Shown here: one piece after another, positions 1,895 to 49,048 of the stretch | Position numbering within the stretch: position 1 is the stretch's first letter | How the letters are laid out: each line of letters opens with the position of its first letter | Assembly: GCA_964386355.1 (NCBI GenBank) | Contig: CAYLQQ010000002.1 | Span: 45,374 to 109,373, forward strand | Direction of reading: 5' to 3' | Length of the DNA stretch: 64,000 nucleotides | Source of the DNA: an uncultured Pseudomonadales bacterium | GTDB taxonomy: Bacteria; Patescibacteriota; Microgenomatia; UBA1400; UBA1449 | The notes under the pieces: model-generated | Seen by the model: only the letters and a program-made list of their open reading frames with translations | Databases searched by the model: none | Told to the model about the DNA's origin: nothing | Translations under genes and position numbers: made by a program

Positions 1895-4150
1895 TCAATA
1901 CTCCGGAAGGATATTATAAACAATTGTTCCCTCGTATAGATCAGATGGCTGAAGATAATTTACCTCTATTGCATAGCTTACATAAACCGTTTTTTCTTCA
2001 GCTTCTTGTGAGGACATGACGCTGTGTGAGATGGTGCTTAAAGGACCAAATTTTGCTGATGCATTTGACCACCCCTCCACTCTTGTATCAGATGTATTTA
2101 CGCCCACCCAGCCCGTATTAACGTTCCGTACTATGCCATTTGGTGCTGACCATATTTGTGGGGTTTGCCATGTGACAGAAGTTGCGGCAAATTCATCAAT
2201 ATTATTATCGGGGTAGTTCCCCTGCATTTGATTATACAGTTTGACGCTAACATCATAGCCATAGTCTGTATTGCTGTTTACCGTCAGCTTGTGAGATCCG
2301 AACTTCGGTACGCCAACACTGAGATTACCGAATGGAAGGGTAGTGTGGGTTGTGTTTATATTTGTTGTAATTCCGTTGTTTGAAGTTCCTGTAGGTACAC
2401 CTTCGATAGCAAAAGATAAGCTAGGAGTAGCTCGATGGTATATATCAAATGTTTGTCCATCACTTTGTACTGCTGAAAATGATTGTAGAAGCAAGAGATC
2501 TGAATATATGGTTTGCTCAATGGGGTATGTTGTATAGTCGCCTGCGGTTTTATTGATTCGGATGTAGTACAGAGGATGTCCACCATTTACGGTTGATTTA
2601 GTCCATTCATTCGGAACAGTATAGTACACATTTCCAGCACTTGTAAATGTGCTAGCTCCTGAGTTGCTATTAGATATTGCAAGGGTAGACCAGGTATCAC
2701 AAGGAGTATTGATATCCAAGTTTGAGCCGCAGTAAGACCAAACGGTTATAATACCAGAACCTGCACCTTTGGTTTGTAGTTGGGTATTTACACCGCTAAA
2801 CTGCGTGTGATTACCCAGGTAAAGGTAATCATTAGAATTGTCAAAAATCTGGTAGCTGCCCTGATCAAAACTGGCATTATCTTGACTATCAGCCAAGTAC
2901 TCATTTGTATCAGATGCCAAGCCACCTCTTGCCAGCTGTTTCCAGGTGTTTGAGCTGTCATAAAACCAAGCTTGTGAAAATGGTATTAAATTGGCATTAT
3001 AATCTGTATTGATCGTACGGTTTGTGCCTTCGATAGAGAAATTGGTTGGTACATTGCTTGTGCGCCAGTTTCTAAATTTGAATATAGGGGCATATCTTGA
3101 GTACGTTTCCCCATCCAAATTAAAAGAAATTATATTGTTTGAAGTTATTAGCGGGTAACTGTTTTGGGTTTGGTTAAAGTAGTCGCTTTCTCCTGTATTG
3201 GTAAACTCACTAGCAGAACTCCAGGCTGAACCTACAGATATTTTGCCAAATAAGCTGTCTGGTTGCCATAAATCTACAGCATAGCTTTTTGCTTCATTAC
3301 CGCTTAAGCTATTATCGTCAGTAATCTGAAAAACATAAGTATACGTATATGACTGTCCTCCAGAAAGACTATCATCAGTAATCAAACCGGCTGTAATTAC
3401 ATTTTCATCATTCTGGTATAAAAATTCATTATTTGGGAAAAAGCTGGGTACTTCTAGGGCATGTATCATGTAATCATTATCAGTACCGGTAGCTGGGTCA
3501 GAACCGGTGAGTGTTAGGCTAATCCCAGGAGCTGTGTATGTAATGTCAGCCACGCTCTGAATAGCTGCGCTTGGTGTGACGGTACCAGGAGCTGTATCAT
3601 GATCAGAAATAAAAGCATTTTCATCAAATAAGCTTGGTGCAAACGAAATGTAAGGTCCAGTCATTCCAGTACCAGCTGTGGATGAGCTAAAGGCACCATG
3701 CACCACAATCCTATCGGGATATATGGTATAGATTTGGGTATATTCTCCATCATTACTAGAACCGCAAGCTCCGTCTGTAAAATCATAGAGATCCCCGCTT
3801 ACTGAGATGACAATTCTTGTTTGAGTAGATTCCAAAAGGTGTATTGAAGCATTACTTTCACAAAACATGCTGTTTGTATCTCGTGTGACTAAACCCATTC
3901 CATATAACCGATTTGAAGTGCTACTAGTATCGATAATATTAGTGCTGCTTGAGCTGGGAATAACTAAGCTCGATAGTACTCCCCCGAGATCGCTCCTAAA
4001 CGTTGCTTTCCAGCTCGGGGTGGAATTACTGTTAACAACAATTGTGGTTGCAGTTATAGAGTCTACGCTCACTGATGCGGCATATACTTGTTGAGTGCAG
4101 GTCAGAAAGGTGAACGATATGAGAAATAGAAAGATACATGTTAATCGCAT
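1895..4150 (-). CDS. large secreted Ser/Thr/Asn-rich surface protein (751 aa) with a C-terminal domain shared with the downstream paralog
   Basis: Signal peptide MRLTCIFLFLISFTFLTCTQQVYA; very high S/T/N/G content. C-terminal ~140 aa (LPFGNLSVGVPKFGSHKLTVNSN...NTGWVGVNTSD...VYVSYAIEVNYLQPSDLYEGTIVYNILPEY) aligns with the C-terminus of the 369-aa protein at 4229-5338. Confidence 0.6.
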   Translation of the reverse strand: MRLTCIFLFLISFTFLTCTQQVYAASVSVDSITATTIVVNSNSTPSWKATFRSDLGGVLSSLVIPSSSSTNIIDTSSTSNRLYGMGLVTRDTNSMFCESNASIHLLESTQTRIVISVSGDLYDFTDGACGSSNDGEYTQIYTIYPDRIVVHGAFSSSTAGTGMTGPYISFAPSLFDENAFISDHDTAPGTVTPSAAIQSVADITYTAPGISLTLTGSDPATGTDNDYMIHALEVPSFFPNNEFLYQNDENVITAGLITDDSLSGGQSYTYTYVFQITDDNSLSGNEAKSYAVDLWQPDSLFGKISVGSAWSSASEFTNTGESDYFNQTQNSYPLITSNNIISFNLDGETYSRYAPIFKFRNWRTSNVPTNFSIEGTNRTINTDYNANLIPFSQAWFYDSSNTWKQLARGGLASDTNEYLADSQDNASFDQGSYQIFDNSNDYLYLGNHTQFSGVNTQLQTKGAGSGIITVWSYCGSNLDINTPCDTWSTLAISNSNSGASTFTSAGNVYYTVPNEWTKSTVNGGHPLYYIRINKTAGDYTTYPIEQTIYSDLLLLQSFSAVQSDGQTFDIYHRATPSLSFAIEGVPTGTSNNGITTNINTTHTTLPFGNLSVGVPKFGSHKLTVNSNTDYGYDVSVKLYNQMQGNYPDNNIDEFAATSVTWQTPQIWSAPNGIVRNVNTGWVGVNTSDTRVEGWSNASAKFGPLSTISHSVMSSQEAEEKTVYVSYAIEVNYLQPSDLYEGTIVYNILPEY

Positions 4151-5482: not shown

Positions 5483-7180
5483 ATGATAGAAGATATTAAA
5501 ATTGTATCAGGATCAAGTATCATTTATACTCAGAGCATGGTACTTTCTGACGATGCATTACTAGAACAGTCACTCCAGGATATTGGGATTAAATCTTACA
5601 AGGATCCCTTTGGTATGCCTGACACGTTTATATATGATCCCATAAAACCCATACAAGAAAAAGAAGGCAGCAAACGGCAAGTCCGCTTTACCCAACTGCT
5701 GAACTATTCGTTTCCAGAAGAGATAGAAGGTGGAGTAGCCGAGGTAGGGGAGGTGATATATATCGGCGATGGGGTGTGCCGGGTGGTCGGCTTATCGAAA
5801 GCTGAAATCGAAGATGTAATCAATGTTAAAACAGGTAAGGGTTGGGAAAAGGCACTCATCTTAGGTATAGAAGATACCCATATTGAGTCAGTTGTTCTTG
5901 GAGATTATTCAAATATCAAACAGGGCGACCAGGTAATCGCAACTAACTCAAGGTTAAAAGTGCCTGTTGGTAAAACTCTGTATGGCCGGGTAATTAGTCC
6001 TCTCGGAGTGCCTATAGATGGTAAGGGCAAGATTGAACCCGAAACGTACCGGGATGTGGAATTTCCAGCCCCATCAGTTATGGAGCGTGAGCCCATTTTT
6101 GAACCCCTAAAAACAGGTGAGATGGTTATAGATGCTACGATCCCTATCGGTTTAGGCCAGAGAGAATTGGTGATAGGAGACCGAAAAAGCGGGAAGAGCA
6201 GGTTTGCTATCGACATCATTTCAAACCAAAAAGGCAGAAACATGATCTGTGTATATGTTGGAGTTGGAATGCAGGCTGCTAAGGCAAAGGCTACGCTTGA
6301 GCTTTTGGAATCTAGAGAGGCCATGGATTACACCATCATGGTTGTATCTACTTCTGATGATCCTCCGTCACTACAGTACATCTCTCCATATGTAGGTACT
6401 GCCATAGCGGAGCATTTTATGTATGCAGGCAAAAATGTCTTGATTATTTATGATGATCTATCAAAACAAGCAAAAGCTTATCGGCAGGTTTCATTGCTGT
6501 TGAAACGCTCGCCAGGTCGAGATGCATATCCTGGTGATATCTTCTTTTTACATTCCAGGCTACTTGAACGCTCATCAAAAATGCATCGCAAGCTGGGAGG
6601 AGGTGCCATTACTGCCCTACCCATTGCCGAAACCCAGTCCGGTGATATATCTGATTACATCATCACCAATCTCATGTCTATTACAGATGGGCACATTTAT
6701 CTGGATGCAAATATGATGCATGAGGGAATTTTACCGGCAGTAAACTCACAAGCCTCAGTTTCCCGTATCGGGAGTAAGGTCCAGTCAAGTTTGCTAAAAA
6801 AGGTAGGAGAGCTTGCTTCGAGAGCTCTAGCCCGGTATGCAGAGTTAAAATCATTTGAAACGATTAACACCGAAGTTGCAGAGGAAACACTTCGGGATAT
6901 ACGGAGAGGCAAAAAAGTAAAGGAAATGTTAGCTCAAGTATCATCAGTAAATTATTCTACAGATGAGATAGTAGTTTTGCTCCATTTAGTAACTTCAGAT
7001 AAGCTGGAGATGATCGATCTTACAGACCTGTCTAAGTTTAAGCTGGAATTCCTGGAATACTATAGAAAAATTGTGACTCCTGAATTTAGAGGTAAATGTG
7101 AATCGTCAAAAGACCTCAAAGATATCGATGGGGAAGTGTCTGTTATGCTGGATAGGTTTTTAAAGCAACGTACAAGTTAG
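5483..7180 (+). CDS. atpA: F-type ATPase alpha subunit, with about 45-65 aa N-terminal extension
   Basis: P-loop GDRKSGKS, then DDLSKQAKAYRQVSLLLKRSPGRDAYPGDIFFLHSRLLERS, typical of alpha. The N-terminal beta-barrel core starts at EVGEVIYIGDGVCRVVGL, after extra N-terminal residues. Confidence 0.9.
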   Translation: MIEDIKIVSGSSIIYTQSMVLSDDALLEQSLQDIGIKSYKDPFGMPDTFIYDPIKPIQEKEGSKRQVRFTQLLNYSFPEEIEGGVAEVGEVIYIGDGVCRVVGLSKAEIEDVINVKTGKGWEKALILGIEDTHIESVVLGDYSNIKQGDQVIATNSRLKVPVGKTLYGRVISPLGVPIDGKGKIEPETYRDVEFPAPSVMEREPIFEPLKTGEMVIDATIPIGLGQRELVIGDRKSGKSRFAIDIISNQKGRNMICVYVGVGMQAAKAKATLELLESREAMDYTIMVVSTSDDPPSLQYISPYVGTAIAEHFMYAGKNVLIIYDDLSKQAKAYRQVSLLLKRSPGRDAYPGDIFFLHSRLLERSSKMHRKLGGGAITALPIAETQSGDISDYIITNLMSITDGHIYLDANMMHEGILPAVNSQASVSRIGSKVQSSLLKKVGELASRALARYAELKSFETINTEVAEETLRDIRRGKKVKEMLAQVSSVNYSTDEIVVLLHLVTSDKLEMIDLTDLSKFKLEFLEYYRKIVTPEFRGKCESSKDLKDIDGEVSVMLDRFLKQRTS

Positions 7181-8164: not shown

Positions 8165-11973
<3,809 letters not shown>

Positions 11974-19929: not shown

Positions 19930-21810
19930 TTAATTATTTTTTACAAATAATCCAAGTATAGGCTTTTCTGTACTTTTAAAATCCTCGCTTTTCATCTGCA
20001 CTGACTGCGTGTTTGATCCGGCATTGAAGTTGATCCAGGCTTGCTCAAGTAAGCCTTCATCAACATAGGTCGGAATATTAAATAAACTTCCAAATGGCGG
20101 GACGGAACCGGGTCGTAAGCCCGTGACCTTTAGTAACGTATCCTTATCTACTAGAGCAACATCTTTAAATCCAGTTGCTTGCTTAAATGCTTTTAGGTCA
20201 AGTTTAGATGCAGCTGAGACAACAACCATGATGGGTTTGCCATCAGCCATACAAACCAAGGCTTTAGCACCGGATTCTATGGAAGTTCCTCTAGCTTGTG
20301 CGGCCTCTTCGCTGGTAAACACAGGTTTATGCTCGAATTTCTTGTACTCAACTTTTTCATTATCTAAGTAATTGCAGATCTGCTCAAAGATCGATTTAGA
20401 AGTAGTCTGTTTCATAGAGCGGATCTGAATACCCAGCTCTTTCATCTGTTCTTCTGAGATGGGGCTGGGGGCATCCATCACTGCCGTTCTACCTGTTGAG
20501 GTCATCGGGAAGGCAATTGCCTCTTTAAGAGAGCTTTGGTTACTTAATAGCATGACAAACCTGTCTAAACCCAATGCTAGACCACCATGTGGCGGAGTTC
20601 CAAGACGAAACGCTTCAAGCATATGACCAACTGATGCTTCAATTTCTTCTTTAGAATATCCCATTATCTCAAACGTTTTATAAAGAGCGTTTGGGTTATG
20701 TGCCCGGATAGATCCTCCACCCATTTCGTATCCATTACAAACAAGGTCATATTGTGTTGTGAGAATATTCTCAATATTTTTCCCTTCCAGATGATCGGCA
20801 ATAAACTCATCTTTAGGCTGAGAAAACGGGTTGTGAGTGAATGTCCAGCCGCTTTTACCGTCACGCACCTCGGCCACGTCTTCTTTATTTACTTTCTTGA
20901 AAAATGGAAAGTCTACTACCCAAGCAAAAGCTAATACTCCATCCTTCTTTTCCTGTTCCGTTCGGATATCAAACCTGTCTGCACCATAGGTTTTAATAGC
21001 TTCATCATAAGTAATTATGGGAAATTTCCCTTCTCTTAGTTTACCTCCTACAGCCAAGATTGCTGCTTTGGTAGCCTGTTCAACCATTTCCATTACGTCC
21101 TCTCGTTTGACAAAGGACATCTCCAAATCAAGCTGGGTAAACTCAAATCCCCGGTCAGCCCGCAGATCCTCATCGCGGATGCAACGGGCAATCTGGAAAT
21201 AGCGTTCAAAGCCGGCTGTCATCAAAAGCTGTTTGTACTGCTGGGGTGATTGGGGCAAGGCATAGAACTTGCCTGGTTGGAAACGGGAAGGAACCACAAA
21301 ATCTCGGGCGCCTTCTTTGGTTGATTTGGTCAGCATGGGTGTCTCGATCTCGACAAAATCATTGGCAAATAAAGACTTGCGGAACTCTTCGATGAGCTTA
21401 CTTCGAAGCCTGATTGCTTTTTGCAGACGCTCACGTCGAAGGTCCAGGTATCTGTATTTTAACTTGAGCTCTTCATCAAGTTGAGTGCCATCAGTATCTA
21501 TGGGGAAGGGTAGTTCTTTGCATTCATTTAACAGGCTAAATGATGATGCTTGAATTTCGATTGCGCCGGTAGGAAGGTCTTTATTTACCATTTGCTCGGG
21601 ACGGTTATTAACTATACCGACTACTTCAACCACATCTTCCTGACTGAGTTTTCCCATTTTTGAGTCGCCCACTACCTGCACCTTGCCCGATCTATCGCGA
21701 AGCTCGATGAAAACTAATTTGCCGTGATCGCGGACCGTATCAACCCAACCTTGTAGCAAGATCTCCTCACCAATCTTTTTAAATGTTTCAAGTGCGAGTG
21801 TGCGTTTCAT
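19930..21810 (-). CDS. aspS: aspartyl-tRNA synthetase (no GAD insertion) with a C-terminal YbaK/ProX-type deacylase domain
   Basis: Class II motif 2 FQIARCIRDEDLRADRGFEFTQLDLEMSF, motif 3 GGLALGLDRFVMLL. The C-terminal ~155 aa (KALVCMADGKPIMVVVSAASKLDLKAFKQATGFKDVALVDKDTLLKVTGLRPGSVPPFG) aligns along its length with E. coli YbaK, including the conserved Lys and the GxxxPxG loop. Good SD AAAGGAGATAT before the ATG. Confidence 0.85.
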   Translation of the reverse strand: MKRTLALETFKKIGEEILLQGWVDTVRDHGKLVFIELRDRSGKVQVVGDSKMGKLSQEDVVEVVGIVNNRPEQMVNKDLPTGAIEIQASSFSLLNECKELPFPIDTDGTQLDEELKLKYRYLDLRRERLQKAIRLRSKLIEEFRKSLFANDFVEIETPMLTKSTKEGARDFVVPSRFQPGKFYALPQSPQQYKQLLMTAGFERYFQIARCIRDEDLRADRGFEFTQLDLEMSFVKREDVMEMVEQATKAAILAVGGKLREGKFPIITYDEAIKTYGADRFDIRTEQEKKDGVLAFAWVVDFPFFKKVNKEDVAEVRDGKSGWTFTHNPFSQPKDEFIADHLEGKNIENILTTQYDLVCNGYEMGGGSIRAHNPNALYKTFEIMGYSKEEIEASVGHMLEAFRLGTPPHGGLALGLDRFVMLLSNQSSLKEAIAFPMTSTGRTAVMDAPSPISEEQMKELGIQIRSMKQTTSKSIFEQICNYLDNEKVEYKKFEHKPVFTSEEAAQARGTSIESGAKALVCMADGKPIMVVVSAASKLDLKAFKQATGFKDVALVDKDTLLKVTGLRPGSVPPFGSLFNIPTYVDEGLLEQAWINFNAGSNTQSVQMKSEDFKSTEKPILGLFVKNN

Positions 21811-30885: not shown

Positions 30886-31404
30886 ATGTTTGATACTTTA
30901 TTTATATACACCCTAACAGTAATTATTTACATTGGCATTCTTTTCTTTTTCTTTTGGAGGCGTAATAGAAAACAAGAAGAACAGCTTAATGCTTTTTTGA
31001 AAGAAGCTAAAGAAAAACTTGAATTGCATAGAAAAGAGGCAAAAGTTCAAGCCTCAGGTAAAGTTGCCAAAGCATTTGAGCTGATCAAACGTTTACAAGG
31101 TGTTGCTGAGGATTTGGAGGGTCAAGTACAGACAGAGTATGAAAAAGTACTGGAAGAAGCCCAGCAGCAGAAAAAAGATATCATCGCTGAAGCACGCAGA
31201 CAATCTAAAGAAATACTTGAAGGAGCTGATGGAGAGCTCGCTCAGTATAAAGAAGAACGTAAGCGGGAAATTGAGAAAAACCTAGTGAAATTAGTAATGA
31301 GTGTCACTGAAAAGGTAGTCGGTAGGGGATTAACGCGTGAAGACCAAGTTGATCTGATCAGGGAAGCTGTTGAGGAAGTCAGGAAAGAAAAGGGACATTT
31401 ATAA
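30886..31404 (+). CDS. atpF: F-type ATPase subunit b
   Basis: One N-terminal TM (IYTLTVIIYIGILFFFFW), then a ~140-aa charged coiled coil; sits between the c-like gene and atpH. Confidence 0.7.
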   Translation: MFDTLFIYTLTVIIYIGILFFFFWRRNRKQEEQLNAFLKEAKEKLELHRKEAKVQASGKVAKAFELIKRLQGVAEDLEGQVQTEYEKVLEEAQQQKKDIIAEARRQSKEILEGADGELAQYKEERKREIEKNLVKLVMSVTEKVVGRGLTREDQVDLIREAVEEVRKEKGHL

Positions 31405-31431
31405 ATTGCTTACGTTTACTCTAAAGCATAT

Positions 31432-32010
31432 ATGGAAAAAGGTGTTGATAAATTAGCAAAACAACTGCTCTCTCAAATCTATACCACATCAGAACTTAAA
31501 AAAACTTCTCTGGCGTTAGAAGAACTATCACACTCTTCAACTTTTAAGGCAGAAACGCGCGCTATAGTAGCTAATCCTAAATTAGCTGATGAAGCTAAAG
31601 CAACACAATTACTAAAACTGTTTGATGAAATAGATATTCCTATAATCCAATCGTTTTTTTCAGGGGTTTTTAGTGAAGGAGAGTTCTGGATGTTTTCCTC
31701 CAAACAATTCGATTACTTCGACGAATTTGTAAGAGCTTTTCAGCTGGCTACTGAGAATGTACTAGTGGTATCGATGGTTACTGCTATTGAGCTTTATCCG
31801 CGTGAGCAGATGGTTTTTGCGCAAGAACTAGGGAAAAGCCTCGAAAGACAAGTTGTTTTGGACTTTAAACTTAATTCTGGAATTATCGGCGGAGCTCAGA
31901 TTCGAATCGGAAACCTAGTATTTGACTATACGTTGCGCTCTAAGTTTAATCAGTTTGAAAGGCAATGGATAAGTCGCATGGCAAAAACAGCTGCTTTTGT
32001 GGGGGAGTAA
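31432..32010 (+). CDS. atpH: F-type ATPase delta subunit (OSCP)
   Basis: C-terminal IIGGAQIRIGNLVFDYTLRSKFNQF fits the delta signature (GG...D.S..); length 192 aa. Confidence 0.65.
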   Translation: MEKGVDKLAKQLLSQIYTTSELKKTSLALEELSHSSTFKAETRAIVANPKLADEAKATQLLKLFDEIDIPIIQSFFSGVFSEGEFWMFSSKQFDYFDEFVRAFQLATENVLVVSMVTAIELYPREQMVFAQELGKSLERQVVLDFKLNSGIIGGAQIRIGNLVFDYTLRSKFNQFERQWISRMAKTAAFVGE

Positions 32011-32012
32011 AG

Positions 32013-32085
32013 TGATCCCACGGGGAATCGAACCCCGGTTTACGGGATGAGAACCCGCTGTCCTAGGCCACTAGACGATGGGACC
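32013..32085 (-). tRNA. tRNA-Glu (anticodon CUC), CCA not encoded
   Basis: Reverse complement GGTCCCATCGTCTAGTGGCCTAGGACAGCGGGTTCTCATCCCGTAAACCGGGGTTCGATTCCCCGTGGGATCA folds as a cloverleaf: 7-bp acceptor stem, anticodon loop UUCUCAU, TTCGATT T-loop. The genome continues CT after the discriminator A. Confidence 0.85.
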
Positions 32086-32424: not shown

Positions 32425-32904
32425 ATGGCAGATTTGAGCGCAAACAGCGTCTACCTGACCAAGGACGGTTTAACAAACCTTGAAAAAGAACTTGAAGAGC
32501 TAAAAAAGGTTAAATTACCAAAACTAGTTAAACGCGTTGCGATAGCACGTGATAATGGTGATTTATCAGAAAATGCTGAGTATAGTTCTGCCCGTGAAGA
32601 ATTGTCATTTGTTGAAGGCAGAGTAGATGAACTTGAAGATATTCTAGCTCATGCGAAAGTGATAAAACAATCAAATGGGAGTGGTAAAAAGCAAGTCTCC
32701 TTGGGCAGCCAGATAACTGTTAAAGTTAATAATGGTGAGCATGTTTTTACTATTGTGGGTGAGTGGGAAGCGGATCCTATGGAAAAGAAAATCAGCCATG
32801 ATTCACCACTTGGAAAAGCGCTTTTAGGTAAAAAAGAAGGCGAAGAAGTTGAGGTAGAAGCTCCGGCGGGCAGGGTTGTATATAAAATCGTAAAAATTCA
32901 TTAA
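32425..32904 (+). CDS. greA: transcription elongation factor GreA
   Basis: N-terminal coiled coil YLTKDGLTNLEKELEELK...ARDNGDLSENAEYSSAREEL; C-terminal FKBP-like domain. Confidence 0.85.
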   Translation: MADLSANSVYLTKDGLTNLEKELEELKKVKLPKLVKRVAIARDNGDLSENAEYSSAREELSFVEGRVDELEDILAHAKVIKQSNGSGKKQVSLGSQITVKVNNGEHVFTIVGEWEADPMEKKISHDSPLGKALLGKKEGEEVEVEAPAGRVVYKIVKIH

Positions 32905-32930
32905 TCATGCTGTTTTTATTAAACAGCAAA

Positions 32931-32962
32931 AAATCCTCCCGACGAACCGGGGGGATTTTTGG
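32931..32962 (+). terminator. rho-independent terminator after greA (10-bp stem AATCCTCCCG / CGGGGGGATT, then T-run)
   Basis: Read directly; a smaller hairpin GCTGTTT...AAACAGC precedes it. Confidence 0.55.
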
Positions 32963-32995
32963 TAAAATAGCTACGTTTAGTAAATCAAAAAATAT

Positions 32996-35290
32996 ATGTA
33001 TTGGGCAGATAAAATCGCAGATCAGATTGTAAAAAGTGGACAGCATAAACCATACTGGGTTGATGATATGAAAACCCCCTCTGGAAGGATTCATGTTGGG
33101 TCTTTACGGGGTGTGTTGATACATGATTTTGTCCACAAAGCTCTTATGCATCAAGGAAAATCCTCGACTTTTACGTATGTGTACAACGACATGGATCCAA
33201 TGGATGCATTACCGGGGTACTTAGATAAAGATGTTTATACTCAACATATGGGTAAGCCTCTGTATAAAATACCTGCACCTGAAGGTAACAAAAGTTTTGC
33301 TCAGTATTATGCCGATGAGTTTACTGGGGTTTTTAATCGCCTTGGGGCAACTCCCAAGATAGTGTTGTCGCATGAGCTGTATGAATCCGGCCAGATGAAT
33401 CCTCTTATACAGATAGCTTTAGATAATGTTGAAGAGTTAAAACACATTTATCGCGACATTGCTCATTACGAATTAGAAAAGAACTGGTATCCATTTCAGG
33501 TATTCTGTGAGCACTGCGGAAAAGAGGGTTCTACTACAACCTATCATTGGGATGGTGAGTATGTATATTACCGATGTGAAAAAAGTAAAGTAGAATGGGC
33601 TGTTGGCTGTGGTCATGAGGGCAAGGTTTCACCCTTTAACGGTACCGGTAAATTTCTTTGGAAAGTTGACTGGCCAGCTCACTGGAAGTTGATTGGTATT
33701 ACTATTGAAGGTGCTGGAAAGGATCATACTTCAGCCGGAGGTTCCCGTGATATGGCTCGGGAAATTGTGAAGCGTGTTTTCAAATACCCTGAGCCGTATG
33801 ACATCCCTTATGAGTGGTTGCTTATCCGTGGTGCCAAAATGTCTTCATCTAAAGGTATTGGAGCCTCTGCTAAAGAGTTTGCTGATCTTTTACCTCCGGA
33901 AGTGGGTAGGTTCTTGTTTGCCCGTACCCATTGCAATACAGTAATCGATTTTGATTTAGTTGGTAATACCATCCCTGATCTATTTGATGAATATGACAAA
34001 TGTGCACAGGCATATTTTAGTGGTAAACAAGATATGTATGCCCGGATTTATGAAGCTTCACAAGTGACTGATAAAAAATCAGATCCCGTATTTTTACCAA
34101 GATTTAGAGATGTAGCAATGTATAGCCAAATGCCCAGCGTTGATCTGATTGCAAAATTTGAACAGGTAAAAGGTTCTATCTTATCACCTGCAGAAAGGCA
34201 TATCCTGGAAGAGAGGGTAAATTACGCAAAGAAGTGGATTAAAAACTATGCTCCGTCTAATTTGAACTTTCAACTCTCAGATAACTCAACTCAATCTGTA
34301 ACACTTAATCAAAAACAGAAAGATTATTTAGGCTCTGTAATAGCGTTATTACAGAAAACATGGAATAAACCGGAAGATTTTCAATTTGAGCTGTTTGAAG
34401 AAACAAAACGACTTGGAATTTCAGCCAAGGAAGCTTTTGCTGCCATTTATCAGATACTGTTAGGTAAGAATTTTGGTCCTAAAGCAGCATGGTTTCTGTT
34501 GGAACAGGATAAAGAAGAGTTAATTAAGCGATTTAGCGAGGTGATAGGAGAAACTAATAAAAGTGATGTATCCATTTCCCAAACTTTTCCAACAATTACT
34601 GACTCAAAGATGATACAAATCAGTACAGCCATTGCACATCAATACCCTTCAGTGCATATCGGGTTTGCCATTATCAGAGGCATACAAGTGGTCAAAACCA
34701 ATGAACAGCTAGAACAAGAAAAAGAAACCCTATATGCAAAACTAAAAAGCATGACGACAGAAGAGATTGGCACTATGCCAGAGATCTTAAGTTATAGAAA
34801 AATGTACAAACAAATGGGGGTAGATTGGCATTCCAGAAGGCCTAGTCCAGAAGCTTTACTACGCCGTATCGTACAAGGCAAGGATTTGTATGCTGTAAAT
34901 ACTTGCGTTGATGCGTACAACCTGATTGTGATGAAATATAGAGTAAGTGTCGGGACATTTGACCTAAAAAATTTGGATTTTCCGGTAGAACTGTGTGTTG
35001 CGAAGGGTGGAGAAAAGATATTGCTTTTGGGCAATGATGAAGAAACCGAAATAAAAGCAGGTGAAGTGTATTATCAAGATCAAACTGGACCATACAATCT
35101 AGATTATAACTACAGAGACTCTCAGCGGGTGAGTGTGAATGAAGACACTGAAGACATTATGATCAACGTTGATGGCGTGTATGATGTTGGTAGACCACAT
35201 GTAGAAAGAGCACTGAAAGAGACTTTAGAGATTATCAAAAAGTACTGCGGTGGAGTGATAGAAGTCGCTGGTATTATTGAAGCGAAATAA
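32996..35290 (+). CDS. class I lysyl-tRNA synthetase with a C-terminal B3/4 (COG3382-like) domain
   Basis: HIGH-region TPSGRIHVGSLRG and KMSSSKG are the LysRS-I signature. Residues about 540-764 (PSPEALLRRIVQGKDLYAVNTCVDAYNLIVMKYRVSVGTFDL...GEVYYQD) fit the B3/4 tRNA-binding/editing-domain pattern known from PheRS beta. Confidence 0.75.
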   Translation: MYWADKIADQIVKSGQHKPYWVDDMKTPSGRIHVGSLRGVLIHDFVHKALMHQGKSSTFTYVYNDMDPMDALPGYLDKDVYTQHMGKPLYKIPAPEGNKSFAQYYADEFTGVFNRLGATPKIVLSHELYESGQMNPLIQIALDNVEELKHIYRDIAHYELEKNWYPFQVFCEHCGKEGSTTTYHWDGEYVYYRCEKSKVEWAVGCGHEGKVSPFNGTGKFLWKVDWPAHWKLIGITIEGAGKDHTSAGGSRDMAREIVKRVFKYPEPYDIPYEWLLIRGAKMSSSKGIGASAKEFADLLPPEVGRFLFARTHCNTVIDFDLVGNTIPDLFDEYDKCAQAYFSGKQDMYARIYEASQVTDKKSDPVFLPRFRDVAMYSQMPSVDLIAKFEQVKGSILSPAERHILEERVNYAKKWIKNYAPSNLNFQLSDNSTQSVTLNQKQKDYLGSVIALLQKTWNKPEDFQFELFEETKRLGISAKEAFAAIYQILLGKNFGPKAAWFLLEQDKEELIKRFSEVIGETNKSDVSISQTFPTITDSKMIQISTAIAHQYPSVHIGFAIIRGIQVVKTNEQLEQEKETLYAKLKSMTTEEIGTMPEILSYRKMYKQMGVDWHSRRPSPEALLRRIVQGKDLYAVNTCVDAYNLIVMKYRVSVGTFDLKNLDFPVELCVAKGGEKILLLGNDEETEIKAGEVYYQDQTGPYNLDYNYRDSQRVSVNEDTEDIMINVDGVYDVGRPHVERALKETLEIIKKYCGGVIEVAGIIEAK

Positions 35291-36169
35291 TTACTTCTTT
35301 TTAGCCATCCTATCCCACAGCACCAAGAGCGGGGCGGCGGTGAAGGTTGAGGAATACGTCCCGGAAACAGTTCCTACCAGCAAGGCAAAGACAAACCACT
35401 TGGTCGTTTCTCCTCCCAATAGGTATAAGGCCAAAAGCATAAAAATAATTGTCATGGAATTATTGATAGACCTGGTTAGTGTTTCATTGACGGCTTTATT
35501 GATCAGCATATCAGAAGGAATGCCTGACATCTTGCGTTTTGACTCACGGATGCGGTCATAGACGACGATAGTATCATGGACTGAGAAGCTTAAAATAGTT
35601 AGTAAGGCTGTCATAAACAGGGTGTCCACTTCCACATCCATAAAATATCCCAGCAGAGAAAAGACACCTAAAACCACAAGTGTATCGTGTAGCATAGCGA
35701 GGACTGCACAAATGCCATACTTTTTATCTTTAAATTGCTTCCAGATAAACAGAAGGATGACCCCTGCAGCTATCAATAGGGCTGTAAGAGCTCGCCTAAG
35801 CGTTTCTGCACCAAATGTTGGTCCCAGTGTTTCGAACCGTTTCTCCGTAATGGTAGTGCCGGCTGCTGAAGCTACTTTTTGTTGCAACAGGGAATTTGTT
35901 GCCTGGTCAAATGTTTTGGAACGGATGGTAAAAGTAGAATCTTCCTGTCTGACAGAACTGGCTTCAATTCCCTCCTGCACCAATAATTGTGATAGCTCTT
36001 CCTGGTTATATTGGTTGGGATTTTCGTTGAGTTGGAACTCAAGCAAGGTACCACCAGTAAAATCAATGGAGAGTTTGAGGCCATGAACAATGAGAGAATA
36101 TAGTCCTGGAATGATCACCAGACCGGAGATAACAAAGTAGAGCCAGTAGTATTTCATGAATTTGATCAT
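35291..36169 (-). CDS. secF: protein translocase subunit SecF
   Basis: SIDFTGGT motif and 6 TM; its stop abuts the lysS stop (35290/35291). Confidence 0.85.
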   Translation of the reverse strand: MIKFMKYYWLYFVISGLVIIPGLYSLIVHGLKLSIDFTGGTLLEFQLNENPNQYNQEELSQLLVQEGIEASSVRQEDSTFTIRSKTFDQATNSLLQQKVASAAGTTITEKRFETLGPTFGAETLRRALTALLIAAGVILLFIWKQFKDKKYGICAVLAMLHDTLVVLGVFSLLGYFMDVEVDTLFMTALLTILSFSVHDTIVVYDRIRESKRKMSGIPSDMLINKAVNETLTRSINNSMTIIFMLLALYLLGGETTKWFVFALLVGTVSGTYSSTFTAAPLLVLWDRMAKKK

Positions 36170-36170
36170 A

Positions 36171-37529
36171 TTATTCTTTTCCTCGGTATAAAACTCTTAT
36201 TAGAGTGCGTGAAACAACAATTCCTGTAAACATGCTTACAGCTACCCCTACAAGTAATGTCAAAGCAAAACCTCTGACCATGCCGGAGGTTACCAGCCAG
36301 TTGAAATTTAGAGGGTTTAGCAGAATAATTGCAGTTAAGATTGTGGCTAAGTTGGCATCTTTGATGCTATCCCAGGCGCGACCAAATCCGAGTTCCATAG
36401 CCCGTTTCCATGGCTGACCGGTTCTCATTTCTTCTTTCATGCGTTCGAAAATAAGAATATTAGCATCCACGGCCATTCCTACAGAAAGTATAAAACCGGC
36501 TATTCCAGGCAAAGATAAAGTAATTGGTACTAGTTTATAAATTGATAATGTGATTAAGCTATAAATAATAAGTGCAATATTTGCAATAATTCCCAGTCGA
36601 CCATACAAACCTATCATAAACAGCATGACAATCGCCAGGCCAATTAGTCCGGCAATCACGCTTTTTTGGACTGAATCGGCACCGAGGCTAGGACCGACAG
36701 TACGCTGTTCAATGATTTGTATAGGGACGGGGAGAGCACCTGCATTGAGCTGAATGGCTAGTTCTTTTGCTGAATCGGTAGTAAAACTACCTGAAATGAT
36801 TGCTTCACCAGATGTAATTTCGTCTTGGACAGTGGGTGCAGTGACCGGCATTTCATCCAGAAAGATGGCTACCTGTCTTTGTAGGTTTCGTTTAGTAATT
36901 TCGGCAAACTTGGTTGCCCCTTCGCTTGTAAACTGGATGGCAACTACCGGCTCACCGGAAATACTATTACTACCAAATTGTACAGAAGCGCGTTTGAGGT
37001 CTTTTCCTGTCAAGCCTGTGCTGACAAAGTTTAAAATGGATAAGGCAGAAGGTGAGGCATCTTGGAGTTCGGCAGGCAGCTCACGGAAATCGAGCTGGGC
37101 AGTTTTCCCGATGAGTGAAATGGCATCTTCAACGTTTTGAATACCAGGCATTTCTACGATAATCCGGTACTGGTCATTCATTCTAGAAGTAATAATATTA
37201 GGTTCGGTGACACCATACAAGTCAACGCGCCTACTGATCACTTCCCTGGTCGATTCAAGGGCTGTTGTTCGGTCTTCATTGGGAATAATACTCATATCCG
37301 CTTGCAGAACAAGCTGTACACCCCCCTGCAAATCAAGACCTTGCTGAATATTAAGGTCTCGACTGAACGTTTTATTGCCGATATTAATATTAATTATTGG
37401 GGAACCAATCTTTGTATCTATTTGTTTACCAAAAATAGTAAATTTTACTGGGATGTTTTTTGGGAGAGATATTACCAGTGTAATAAGGGTAAGGAAAATA
37501 ATGAAAATGAATAGCCGAATCGGTTTCAT
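36171..37529 (-). CDS. secD: protein translocase subunit SecD
   Basis: LGLDLQGGVQLVL motif and a large periplasmic domain; 1-nt spacing to secF. Confidence 0.85.
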   Translation of the reverse strand: MKPIRLFIFIIFLTLITLVISLPKNIPVKFTIFGKQIDTKIGSPIININIGNKTFSRDLNIQQGLDLQGGVQLVLQADMSIIPNEDRTTALESTREVISRRVDLYGVTEPNIITSRMNDQYRIIVEMPGIQNVEDAISLIGKTAQLDFRELPAELQDASPSALSILNFVSTGLTGKDLKRASVQFGSNSISGEPVVAIQFTSEGATKFAEITKRNLQRQVAIFLDEMPVTAPTVQDEITSGEAIISGSFTTDSAKELAIQLNAGALPVPIQIIEQRTVGPSLGADSVQKSVIAGLIGLAIVMLFMIGLYGRLGIIANIALIIYSLITLSIYKLVPITLSLPGIAGFILSVGMAVDANILIFERMKEEMRTGQPWKRAMELGFGRAWDSIKDANLATILTAIILLNPLNFNWLVTSGMVRGFALTLLVGVAVSMFTGIVVSRTLIRVLYRGKE

Positions 37530-45244: not shown

Positions 45245-46345
45245 ATGCCTCTATTGGAACAGAAAACAAGATTGCCCGCGTATGGTGAAACCATGATTAG
45301 TTTTCAGGGGAGAGCTGAAGAGCTTCTTAGATTAAATGGCTGTCCTGATCGGATGATCTCAGCTGGTTGGCAAACATGGATTGATAATGCTAGAGCATTA
45401 AACAATTTGGAAAGAGATTTGAGGGGTGAGAATTACGAACAGTTTGGGTTATTTGTAACACATACAGACTCACTAACACATCAAATCCAAGCTGCATGGT
45501 GGCCGATACCCGGATTAAACACATTTTCAGCAAAAGGCCGGAGAGATAGGGAAGCATTGTTTGATGACCATAATGGAGGATTCGCGCTTCACTGGTTTGA
45601 CAGACAAAACAGTTCAACAAGAGCATGTATAAGACGCGGCTATCATGCCGCAGTCTGTTTAGTAACTTCAGACGGGGTTGTAATAGCCCAAACCAAGCAG
45701 TATCCGGGAAAACCCATAACTGCAGATATTATTGGAGGCGGACCTGACATGGATATGCCTCTTGCGCACGGACTGGTAGCACAACTTGAAGCTATTCAAG
45801 AATTGTGTTTGGTTGGAAATGACGGATATATTCATATACCGAAAATTTCGGAAACCATATCAGATATAGATCTAATGAGAATGTTTGCTGCCAGAATGGC
45901 ATCCTTGGATCGAGCAGGAGCCTTGCGTGATAGTCCAGTTCCATGGCATTTACCAGTAAAGATTATAGAAGCCCATGAAAAATTCAGAGGAATGGATAGA
46001 ATTGTCATGCATGATGAAGTTGGACAAGTTGTCGATTGTGGTGATGATGCTATGCTTTGCATAAATGGGGTTGGATATGATGCTGTACATATCAGGCAAT
46101 TACCTCAGCCTGCCTCAGCTTATTCCCAATTTATTGATGTAGAATATTTGGATGGAGATGAGCACCCAAGTTACAGACAGGGAGATGTACTTTGCGTTCC
46201 ATTTAACGAGTTAGTTAGATCAGGTGATTTATGCATGTATCATTATGTATCTTCAGATGGTCAGAAAAGAACTGCTGAACTACCCGCAAATAAATGTTTA
46301 GGCAGTTTTATTAAACGGGCTAGATTATTAGGTTTGCAGCTGTGA
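45245..46345 (+). CDS. hypothetical protein (366 aa), compositionally somewhat GC-richer than neighbours
   Basis: ATG start; Cys/His-containing (CINGVGYDAVH, CLVGNDGYIH); no family recognised. Confidence 0.4.
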   Translation: MPLLEQKTRLPAYGETMISFQGRAEELLRLNGCPDRMISAGWQTWIDNARALNNLERDLRGENYEQFGLFVTHTDSLTHQIQAAWWPIPGLNTFSAKGRRDREALFDDHNGGFALHWFDRQNSSTRACIRRGYHAAVCLVTSDGVVIAQTKQYPGKPITADIIGGGPDMDMPLAHGLVAQLEAIQELCLVGNDGYIHIPKISETISDIDLMRMFAARMASLDRAGALRDSPVPWHLPVKIIEAHEKFRGMDRIVMHDEVGQVVDCGDDAMLCINGVGYDAVHIRQLPQPASAYSQFIDVEYLDGDEHPSYRQGDVLCVPFNELVRSGDLCMYHYVSSDGQKRTAELPANKCLGSFIKRARLLGLQL

Positions 46346-47779: not shown

Positions 47780-49048
47780 TTATCTAATGTTCTCTTTACC
47801 CATGTACGATTGTAGTACTTTTGGTACATATACCGATCCATCTGCTTGTTGGAAATTTTCCAAAACTGCAATTAGAATCCTCGGGCTGGCAATAGCAGTA
47901 TTATTGAGCATGTGGACAAATTTTATTTGGCCATCCTTGGCTTGGTACTTAACATTTGCTCGTCTTGATTGGTACTCACCCATCATTGAGCAAGACATGG
48001 TTTCACCATACTCCTGCCTTCCGGGCATCCAAGTTTCGATATCATACTTTTTGACTTGAGGCTCACCCATATCGCCAGTACACATAAGTAACACGTGATA
48101 TGGGAGACCTAATTCCTGAAGAATTTCTTCTGAATATGATCTTAGATTCTCATGCCATTTCTTTGATTCTTCCCAGTCATTTTTACATATAATAACCTGT
48201 TCAACCTTAGCAAATTCATGAATGCGGTAAATTCCTTTTGTATCTTTGCCGTAACTACCGATCTCCCGCCTGAAGCACTGGCTATATCCTGCATACAACT
48301 TTGGCAGTTCTTTTTCTGGTAAAGTTTCATCCATGTGGTATGACACAAGCGGAACTTCGGCTGTACCTGCCAGGTAGCGGGCATCCTGATTGTCTTTATC
48401 ATCATATGTTTTGTAGACATCTTCTTTACCCCAAGGGAAATGGGCAGTGTTGTAAAACGGACGTTCGAGTAAAACAGTGGGAGGAATTACCGGAGTGAAG
48501 CCTTTTTCTATTAATTTTTTTAGTGCAAATTGCAGAATTGCCAAGTGAAGTAGGGCACCATCTCCCTTTAGGTAATAACCTCGAAATCCTGCAACCTTTA
48601 CACCCCTGTCCATGTCAAGTATTCCTAGGTCTAAACCCAGTTGGATATGGTCTTTAGGCTGGAAATCGAACTTGGTAGGCTCCCCCCACTTTGAGATCTC
48701 AATGTTACCGCTGCTGTCTTTACCAATGGGGACTTCTGGAGCAGGGACGTTTGGAATAGTGAACATCAATCTATCATATTCCTGTTCAACCTCTCTCAGT
48801 TGCGGTTCAAGGGCTGCTAATTGGTCTTTGAGTGCTTTGCCCTGGTCAATTATCTCCTGACTTGGTTTGCCAAACACCCCTTTCATCAGGTCATTGCGCT
48901 GCTTGCGAATTTCTTCAGTTTGCTTAATTAAGCTGCGTCGTTTCTCATCAGCTGCTAATAGTTCGTCTATGGTATCTTTGACACCTTTACTTGCAGCAGC
49001 CTGCTTGACCAAGTCTTTGTTGTCACGGATGAATTGGATATCTAGCAT
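47780..49048 (-). CDS. serS: seryl-tRNA synthetase
   Basis: N-terminal coiled coil; motif 2 FRREIGSYGKDTKGIYRIHEF; motif 3 region; 422 aa. Confidence 0.9.
   Translation of the reverse strand: MLDIQFIRDNKDLVKQAAASKGVKDTIDELLAADEKRRSLIKQTEEIRKQRNDLMKGVFGKPSQEIIDQGKALKDQLAALEPQLREVEQEYDRLMFTIPNVPAPEVPIGKDSSGNIEISKWGEPTKFDFQPKDHIQLGLDLGILDMDRGVKVAGFRGYYLKGDGALLHLAILQFALKKLIEKGFTPVIPPTVLLERPFYNTAHFPWGKEDVYKTYDDKDNQDARYLAGTAEVPLVSYHMDETLPEKELPKLYAGYSQCFRREIGSYGKDTKGIYRIHEFAKVEQVIICKNDWEESKKWHENLRSYSEEILQELGLPYHVLLMCTGDMGEPQVKKYDIETWMPGRQEYGETMSCSMMGEYQSRRANVKYQAKDGQIKFVHMLNNTAIASPRILIAVLENFQQADGSVYVPKVLQSYMGKENIR

Follow-up and report, generated by a model that had tools for sequence, protein, structure and literature searches.

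A CtdA-like B3/4 module on a class I lysyl-tRNA synthetase of a Patescibacteriota genome: a candidate editing domain for mischarged tRNA-Lys

Lysyl-tRNA synthetase (LysRS) is the only aminoacyl-tRNA synthetase that exists in two unrelated classes. To our knowledge, LysRS of both classes and arginyl-tRNA synthetase (ArgRS) are taught as enzymes devoid of a post-transfer editing domain, and a literature search gave no contradiction to this view. Other synthetases carry a homologue of a free-standing deacylase on the enzyme whose errors it corrects, as do prolyl-tRNA synthetase (ProRS) with its INS/YbaK-like domain, and threonyl- and alanyl-tRNA synthetases (ThrRS and AlaRS) with their AlaX-like domains. 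AlaX is an example of a trans-editing homologue fused to a synthetase (PMC11580382). Here, we describe a gene of an uncultured Patescibacteriota bacterium (GenBank assembly GCA_964386355.1) in which a class I LysRS (LysRS-I) is followed by a C-terminal module of the B3/4 type. The gene lies on contig CAYLQQ010000002.1 within a stretch of 64,000 nucleotides (positions 45,374 to 109,373), referred to below as the window. We propose that the module may be a tethered editing domain for mischarged tRNA-Lys.

The closest characterized relative of the module is CtdA, a stand-alone canavanyl-tRNA(Arg) deacylase whose activity was shown experimentally (PMC10018355, PMC12449066). In S. enterica CtdA, the pocket is made up of N105, G116, E118, C166, Q173, and I189. 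The N105A, G116H, G116W, and Q173G variants are inactive, and C166 tunes specificity (PMC12449066). N105 is the sole residue in common with the editing site of phenylalanyl-tRNA synthetase (PheRS), where the equivalent residue, N254, positions the catalytic water; the other residues of that site are, in E. coli numbering, R244, Y255, H265, F267, A312, G318, and E334 (PMC12449066). The B3/B4 domain of the PheRS beta subunit (PheRS-beta) acts in cis, as a post-transfer editing domain within the synthetase, and this arrangement is the working model used here.

The gene forms one unbroken open reading frame (ORF) encoding 764 amino acids (Table 1), and a homologue search returned an identical copy of the protein (P0001), encoded on a contig of 136 kb. 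Residues 1–515 correspond to a full-length orthologue of canonical LysRS-I, with the same motifs and the same domain order. Indeed, PF01921 (tRNA-synt_1f, Pfam) matches residues 2–357 (E = 4.7e-89), TIGR00467 (lysS_arch; lysine--tRNA ligase, archaeal/class I type, NCBIfam) matches residues 1–515 with 381.2 bits for a cut-off of 147.55, and the P. horikoshii LysRS-I structure (1irx) aligns with residues 2–513 (E = 1.7e-71). A preliminary description of the locus, made from the DNA sequence, had recognized a LysRS-I from its HIGH-region and KMSSSKG motifs, and both are in place. The former, TPSGRIHVGSLRG, contains a HIGH-type core, H33-V-G-S (residues 33–36). In addition, four cysteines of the catalytic domain probably form a zinc site, as suggested by their four-cysteine pattern. 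The LysRS-I body is intact and is predicted to be a working class I enzyme capable of lysylation; no second LysRS was found in the 64-kb window. Canonical LysRS-I, however, stops near residue 520 and is devoid of an editing domain, whereas the present protein continues for another 250 residues.

The additional part consists of a linker and a module of 224 residues, in which the PSPEALLRRI, AVNTCVDAYNLIVMKYRVSVGTFDL, and GEVYYQD blocks that had pointed to a C-terminal domain of about 220 residues are all located. PF03483 (B3_4) matches residues 600–752 over profile positions 2–174 of 174 (E = 4.6e-21, 75.6 bits for a gathering cut-off of 29.3). This match above the cut-off rules out a generic anticodon-binding extension, the alternative set out in the preliminary description. 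Sequence, profile, and fold are all nearer to CtdA than to PheRS-beta. When the module was used as a single sequence to search the PDB sequences, CtdA was found with E = 1.6e-5 (9f7e) and 2.3e-4 (9mkl), and PheRS-beta with E = 0.013. With a profile built from 26 modules, the values became 5.5e-9 and 2e-8 for CtdA, its best match among PDB sequences, and 3.8e-4 at best for PheRS-beta. An AlphaFold2 model of residues 516–764 was obtained with a mean predicted local distance difference test (pLDDT) value of 92.2 and a predicted template modelling score (pTM) of 0.89. In a Foldseek comparison this fold matches CtdA with E = 3.5e-15 over 233 columns, with template modelling (TM) scores of 0.76 (query-normalised) and 0.82 (target-normalised); the query-normalised TM score is about 0.55 for PheRS-beta. 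The CtdA-type B3/B4 topology extends over the whole module. Since the fold match begins at about residue 540 and the Pfam match only at residue 600, the appended unit is an entire CtdA-like protein of about 225 residues that goes beyond the Pfam core. A duplicate of the PheRS-beta editing domain is ruled out by these comparisons, and the PheRS-beta model TIGR00472 gives only 21.8 bits on the protein, below its cut-off of 402.65. Of the label "PheRS-beta editing-type, COG3382-like" initially given to the module, the second half fits better: a whole B3/4 protein of the free-standing type is present, and only two of the eight PheRS editing-site residues are found.

To find out where such modules occur, we applied the module profile to a genome set with a single member for each species; 179 genomes matched, and the best 80 were inspected. 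Searching 1.84 billion cluster representatives with the same profile in HMMER yielded 3172 matches at E <= 1e-3, of which 1659 reached E <= 1e-10 and 120 reached E <= 1e-30. Partner domains were classified using Pfam, NCBIfam, and phmmer in the best 150 of these 3172 representatives, the best 120 homologues of the protein, and the window protein itself (270 proteins in total). All of the best 120 LysRS homologues have both PF01921 and PF03483. The closest named relatives, 43–67% identical, belong to Candidatus Woesebacteria, Roizmanbacteria, Gottesmanbacteria, Dojkabacteria, Pacebacteria, and CPR3, which places the source of the window in the Microgenomates group of Patescibacteria. In the best 80 of the 179 species genomes, the module and a LysRS invariably share an ORF; the LysRS is of class I in about 71 cases and of class II in nine. 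Across the 270 proteins, the module is found C-terminal to LysRS-I, C-terminal to class II LysRS (LysRS-II; TIGR00499 above cut-off in P0131, P0132, and P0140), N-terminal to LysRS-II (P0185, P0200) or LysRS-I (P0261), and N-terminal to ArgRS (P0162, P0187, P0206, P0212, P0226, P0243, P0265). It also occurs with tRNA_bind, HD, or DUF2000 domains and as a stand-alone protein of about 215–240 residues. No synthetase partner other than LysRS-I, LysRS-II, and ArgRS was found among the best 150 of the 3172 representatives. Unlike the ProRS, ThrRS, and AlaRS fusions, which are ancient and experimentally established, B3/4 fusions to LysRS or ArgRS were found here only in uncultured lineages, and the named matches are almost all from the Candidate Phyla Radiation (CPR)/Patescibacteria. 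Many metagenome-assembled genomes with a CPR-type fusion are labelled either "uncultured Gammaproteobacteria" or "Pseudomonadales" (both in binchicken assemblies), or else Vitreimonas, Eisenbacteria, Methylomirabilota, and the like (SMAG assemblies); these non-CPR taxon labels look like placeholders or errors. Some architectures are elaborate: P0008 is a LysRS-I with two tandem B3_4 modules (1077 residues), P0131 combines LysRS-II, B3_4, and DUF2000, P0140 combines LysRS-II, tRNA_bind, B3_4, and HD, and P0165 consists of B3_4 and tRNA_bind.

The pocket of the module can be compared with that of CtdA residue by residue. Although the module is only about 18% identical to CtdA, both share an S-x-EAL-x-x-R motif, and a HMMER alignment places N105 and G116 of CtdA on N642 and G653. 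The four other pocket residues are replaced (E118 by F655, C166 by N701, Q173 by D708, and I189 by N724). The module also differs from CtdA (9f7e, 9mkl; COG3382/PF03483), a free-standing protein of about 230 residues acting on tRNA-Arg, in being the C-terminal domain of a 764-residue LysRS, a partner that points to tRNA-Lys. In comparison with PheRS-beta (alignment to 3pco_B), N254 corresponds to N642 and F267 to F655, whereas R244, Y255, H265, A312, G318, and E334 correspond to Y, L, G, N, D708, and N, with G318 placed via CtdA Q173 and E334 by extending the alignment by one column. Moreover, the module lacks the PheRS-specific helices and the B1, B2, and B5–B8 domains, and it is appended to a class I LysRS by a flexible linker, whereas the PheRS domain is embedded.

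The remodelled pocket is fixed. Among 139 LysRS-I fusions, N642 is found in 138, G653 in 137, F655 in 135, N701 in 128, D708 in 137, and N724 in 128, giving the signature NGFNDN, to be compared with NGECQI in CtdA. Residues needed for the chemistry of CtdA are thus retained, and the positions governing specificity have been altered and then fixed. A bona fide CtdA function, directed against canavanine, is not adopted here, since the pocket departs from that of CtdA at four of its six residues, all four of them fixed. Among the proteins compared, NGFNDN occurs in 127 LysRS-I fusions and six LysRS-II fusions and otherwise only in short or partner-less proteins, which are most simply read as fragments of LysRS fusions. 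More divergent LysRS fusions and stand-alone proteins have a pocket of the type NA/G-Y-C-D-x or NGFTD-x, and a CtdA-type pocket is also present in 11 stand-alone proteins. Outside the pocket, a scaffold made up of L621, R624, N635, V638, D639, E690, Y693, D695, N705, and R707 prevails across all architecture classes; it is weakest in stand-alone proteins (N705 in 47 of 83, Y693 in 53 of 83).

Conservation along the protein was measured as mean pairwise identity in 73 fusion proteins. The module (541–764) is the best-conserved segment, with a value of 0.592, followed by the catalytic domain (1–357; 0.556), the anticodon-binding domain (358–515; 0.417), and the linker (516–540; 0.168). In the full-length model (pLDDT 93.1, pTM 0.67), residues 521–527 have pLDDT values below 50. 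Because the linker is disordered, variable in length, and poorly conserved, the module is considered to be flexibly tethered. The conservation pattern of the module is the one expected if an active enzyme domain binds a defined ligand, and it argues against a decaying or purely structural appendage. The module could nevertheless be a non-catalytic tRNA-binding or assembly domain, which would aid aminoacylation by holding the acceptor end of tRNA-Lys or by dimerizing the enzyme. CtdA is dimeric, the B3/4 fold occurs in proteins that are not known to edit, such as LRRC47, and a stand-alone relative is labelled by JGI "DNA/RNA-binding domain of Phe-tRNA-synthetase-like protein". Plain tRNA-binding partners of the module also exist (tRNA_bind in P0140 and P0165), and four of the six CtdA pocket residues are replaced. 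However, the Asn that is essential in CtdA and the Gly that is intolerant to mutation are nearly invariant. The replaced positions show no drift (128–137 of 139), which fits a ligand pocket under selection, and the module is better conserved than the anticodon-binding domain (0.592 and 0.417). We consequently regard a non-catalytic role as unlikely.

The association of the module with LysRS extends across the two classes of this enzyme. The top-scoring representative overall is a LysRS-II fusion (P0121), the module of which is 61% identical to that of the window. The same P0121 module is 75% identical over 232 residues to the module of a LysRS-I fusion (P0013), whereas the rest of the two proteins is unrelated. 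The two loci, L082 for P0121 and L083 for P0013, are syntenic, with genes for ATP synthase beta and epsilon, greA, lysRS-B3/4, an HD-domain gene, and serS. Identities between the two loci amount to 86% for ATP synthase beta, 67% for ATP synthase epsilon, 63% for GreA, 75% for the B3/4 module, 63% for the HD protein, and 78% for SerRS (seryl-tRNA synthetase). At the lysRS position, however, the body is of class II at L082 (4619–6781) and of class I at L083 (2546–4933). The greA-lysRS adjacency is also observed in the window. In a neighbour-joining tree, which is not rigorously rooted, five class II modules are nested inside a clade of 129 class I modules. These data fit a scenario in which a minority of lineages have exchanged the class I LysRS body for one of class II, the module being retained at the locus. 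Retention of the module through what looks like an in situ class switch implies that it associates with lysine and tRNA-Lys and not with one catalytic fold.

The ArgRS fusions, which are widespread in another branch of the CPR, make up the second main group of partners. The best 120 homologues of one of them (P0212) all have PF03483 together with ArgRS domains, and those that are named belong to Gracilibacteria, Peregrinibacteria, or the "Patescibacteria group", except one labelled Nitrospirota. In the seven ArgRS fusions identified above, the module has a CtdA-type pocket (NGECEV in four of seven), with E at the position of residue 655 in all seven. This pocket matches the tRNA-Arg substrate class of CtdA, and the ArgRS-B3/4 fusions are probably cis-editing ArgRS enzymes. 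One of them, P0162, has two copies of the module.

These fusions bear on the question of which tRNA the LysRS-linked module would serve. CtdA itself acts in trans on tRNA-Arg (PMC10018355, PMC12449066). By analogy, the module could be a trans-acting deacylase for another tRNA, for instance canavanyl- or analogue-tRNA-Arg, tethered to LysRS so that a reduced genome can express the two together. Such a role agrees with the length and flexibility of the linker, some LysRS fusions do have a CtdA-type pocket, and a YbaK-type domain is carried in the same genome by the aspartyl-tRNA synthetase (AspRS), an enzyme that is no obvious source of YbaK substrates. The NGFNDN signature, on the other hand, departs from CtdA at E118, C166, Q173, and I189, two of these being the specificity-tuning C166 and Q173, the position of an inactivating mutation. 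Furthermore, ArgRS-fused modules retain the CtdA-type pocket, so that pocket and partner co-vary in the two main groups, and the module remained with LysRS when class I gave way to class II at its locus. A trans-acting role therefore seems improbable to us.

We propose instead, with a probability of about 0.6, that the module of LysRS-B3/4 acts on mischarged tRNA-Lys as a post-transfer editing domain tethered to the synthetase. In this mechanism, the synthetase body would charge tRNA-Lys, and the tethered module would sample the 3' aminoacyl end, either before release of the tRNA or by immediate recapture. The module would then hydrolyse the ester of a non-cognate aminoacyl-tRNA-Lys and spare Lys-tRNA-Lys. 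Given its place behind the anticodon-binding domain, at the end of a disordered tether some 25 residues long, the module may rely on recapture rather than on strict shuttling of the CCA end. The editing model is favoured because the catalytic Asn is conserved, the pocket is fixed, the type of pocket co-varies with ArgRS or LysRS as a partner, and the module survives the class switch. Candidates for the rejected amino acid are analogues of lysine and other basic or diamino acids, for example thialysine, oxalysine, ornithine, arginine, homoarginine, or diaminopimelate. We speculate that the threat comes from lysine analogues, compounds resembling arginine, or diamino acids of the cell wall, which auxotrophic symbionts would scavenge.

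Several points weigh against the editing model. Hydrolytic activity, action on tRNA-Lys, and the nature of the amino acid to be rejected are predictions throughout the fusion family. Placed behind the anticodon-binding domain, the module is remote from the site of synthesis, and with a full-length pTM of 0.67 and a disordered linker, a geometry suited to cis editing is no more than a possibility. The error to be corrected is not obvious either, since LysRS-I is described as fairly selective and does not charge ornithine. Indeed, LysRS2 charges ornithine and LysRS1 does not, both binding it weakly (PMC8001834). In addition, some LysRS fusions have a CtdA-like pocket (the N-terminal modules of P0185, P0200, and P0261, and the C-terminal module of P0252), so that the type of pocket does not map cleanly onto the partner. 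Finally, the survey of partners has a limited depth, the best 150 of 3172 representatives, and fusions to other synthetases may exist among the lower-ranking ones.

The linkage to LysRS, strict and common to both classes, would also suit a module using correctly charged Lys-tRNA-Lys, either for regulated hydrolysis or for transfer of the lysyl group to another acceptor. LysX, which combines LysRS with a lysyl-phosphatidylglycerol synthase (NCBIfam NF002821, present among the matches), is a precedent for this. However, the protein is devoid of membrane segments and of any domain resembling a transferase, and hydrolytic editing is what the fold is known to carry out. Moreover, an organism poor in energy would run a futile cycle by hydrolysing the cognate product. 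The neighbourhood (greA, secDF, and ATP synthase genes) hints at no acceptor pathway. Such a use of Lys-tRNA-Lys thus appears highly improbable.

Neither the combination of B3/B4, LysRS, and editing nor that of lysyl-tRNA synthetase, Patescibacteria, and editing retrieved any article in full-text searches, although an earlier description elsewhere is possible. The CtdA literature, including the CtdA-1/CtdA-2 phylogeny, makes no mention of fusions, LysRS, or lysyl, the text of the AARS Online paper links no B3/B4 or editing domain to LysRS-I, and no description of ArgRS-B3/4 fusions was found in the searchable literature. The sole mention of COG3382 retrieved deals with a guanidine-riboswitch regulon, a setting that suits CtdA but not the LysRS fusion. 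The fusion proteins are public, annotated only as "lysine--tRNA ligase", with both Pfam domains precomputed. What is new is the fused context of a putative CtdA/B3-4 deacylase and its pocket.

On a more general level, and with our judgement here evenly divided, lysine decoding in CPR bacteria of the Microgenomates group may depend on an unrecognized post-transfer editing domain, derived from CtdA, provided with an NGFNDN pocket, and apparently so important that it was retained in place when the synthetase body was exchanged for the unrelated LysRS class. Together with the ArgRS fusions, this would add LysRS and ArgRS to the editing synthetases and would point to a specific threat from basic or diamino amino acids in a symbiotic lifestyle. 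Lysine synthetases, thought to be devoid of such a domain, may have gained a proofreading step in the CPR lineage, and the newly defined CtdA family would extend to a third setting, in which the pocket is new. The survival of the best-conserved module through a change of LysRS class can be seen as a natural experiment, which suggests that the need stems from the amino acid and the tRNA and not from the catalytic fold. The fusions also give a handle on how genome-reduced, amino-acid-scavenging CPR bacteria protect translation. Deacylation assays using analogues of lysine would put the editing hypothesis to a direct test, and the fusion suggests orthogonal or fidelity-enhancing parts for genetic-code engineering.

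LysRS is not the only synthetase of the window to carry an appended domain. The preliminary description had counted it as the second one with an editing-type module, and an AspRS (19930–21810, minus strand) is indeed the other. This enzyme is of the bacterial type (NF001750, 591 bits) and ends with a YbaK/ProX-type tRNA_edit domain (PF04073 at residues 493–611, 97 bits; TIGR00011, 63 bits). The YbaK-type domain is present in all of its best 120 homologues, the named ones including Beckwith-, Dojka-, and Woesebacteria. As the Pfam match to the class II core is uninterrupted, the usual bacterial insertion (GAD) domain appears to be absent from this AspRS. SerRS (47780–49048, minus strand) is canonical, an ORF of 422 residues with Seryl_tRNA_N and tRNA-synt_2b and no appended domain. 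The idea of a lineage-wide strategy, also put forward at the outset, holds as far as it is testable (120/120 LysRS, 80/80 genomes, 120/120 AspRS, and 120/120 homologues of the ArgRS fusion), with SerRS as an exception. These data support the view that CPR bacteria habitually, though not universally, attach homologues of trans-editing factors to synthetases, namely AspRS, LysRS, and ArgRS.

Table 1. Position of the LysRS-B3/4 gene, of the parts of its product, and of surrounding features in the window.
Feature	Position	Strand	Basis or remark
ATP synthase alpha-type subunit	5483-7180
ATP synthase beta-type subunit	10558-11973
ATP synthase b-like and delta-like ORFs	30886-32010		identity read from translations alone
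tRNA-Glu(CUC)	32012-32085	-
greA-like gene	32425-32904
Complete gene, class I LysRS + CtdA-like B3/4 module	32996-35290	+	single ORF, 764 residues plus stop codon; start backed by 1irx alignment from residue 2
LysRS-I catalytic (Rossmann-fold) domain, residues 2-357	32999-34066	+	PF01921, E = 4.7e-89; pLDDT mostly >90
HIGH-region motif TPSGRIHVGSLRG, residues 27-39	33074-33112	+	sequence reading; T27, P28, S29, G30, H33, G35 invariant in 73 homologues
Four-cysteine stretch C171, C174, C194, C205	33506-33610	+	invariant alignment columns (73 homologues)
KMSSSKG motif (KMSKS loop), residues 281-287	33836-33856	+	K281, M282, S285, K286, G287 invariant (73 homologues)
Alpha-helical anticodon-binding domain, residues 358-515	34067-34540	+	TIGR00467 and 1irx coverage; weak Anticodon_2 match
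Flexible linker, residues 516-540	34541-34615	+	low pLDDT, low identity, variable length
CtdA-like B3/4 module, residues 541-764 (224 residues), putative aminoacyl-tRNA deacylase	34616-35287	+
Pfam B3_4 (PF03483) match, residues 600-752	34793-35251	+	75.6 bits
Predicted aminoacyl pocket N642, G653, F655, N701, D708, N724	34919-35167	+	aligned to CtdA pocket
secF-like and secD-like genes	35291-37529		convergent

The G+C content is about 0.36–0.44 throughout the window. Two long ORFs, at 1895–4150 (minus strand, 751 residues) and 8165–10555 (plus strand, 796 residues), have no Pfam match at E <= 1e-5; the second sits between the genes of the alpha-type and beta-type subunits of ATP synthase. Upstream of the LysRS gene, an Rfam scan gave no T-box or lysine riboswitch, only tRNA-Glu being matched. 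Between positions 32000 and 35700, promoter-like sites are fewer than in shuffled sequences, and the sole terminator-like hairpin is the one that follows greA. This G+C-rich hairpin (32928–32965, plus strand), located between greA and the LysRS gene and followed by a T-run, looks like an intrinsic terminator, possibly a bidirectional one, so that the LysRS gene may have its own promoter.

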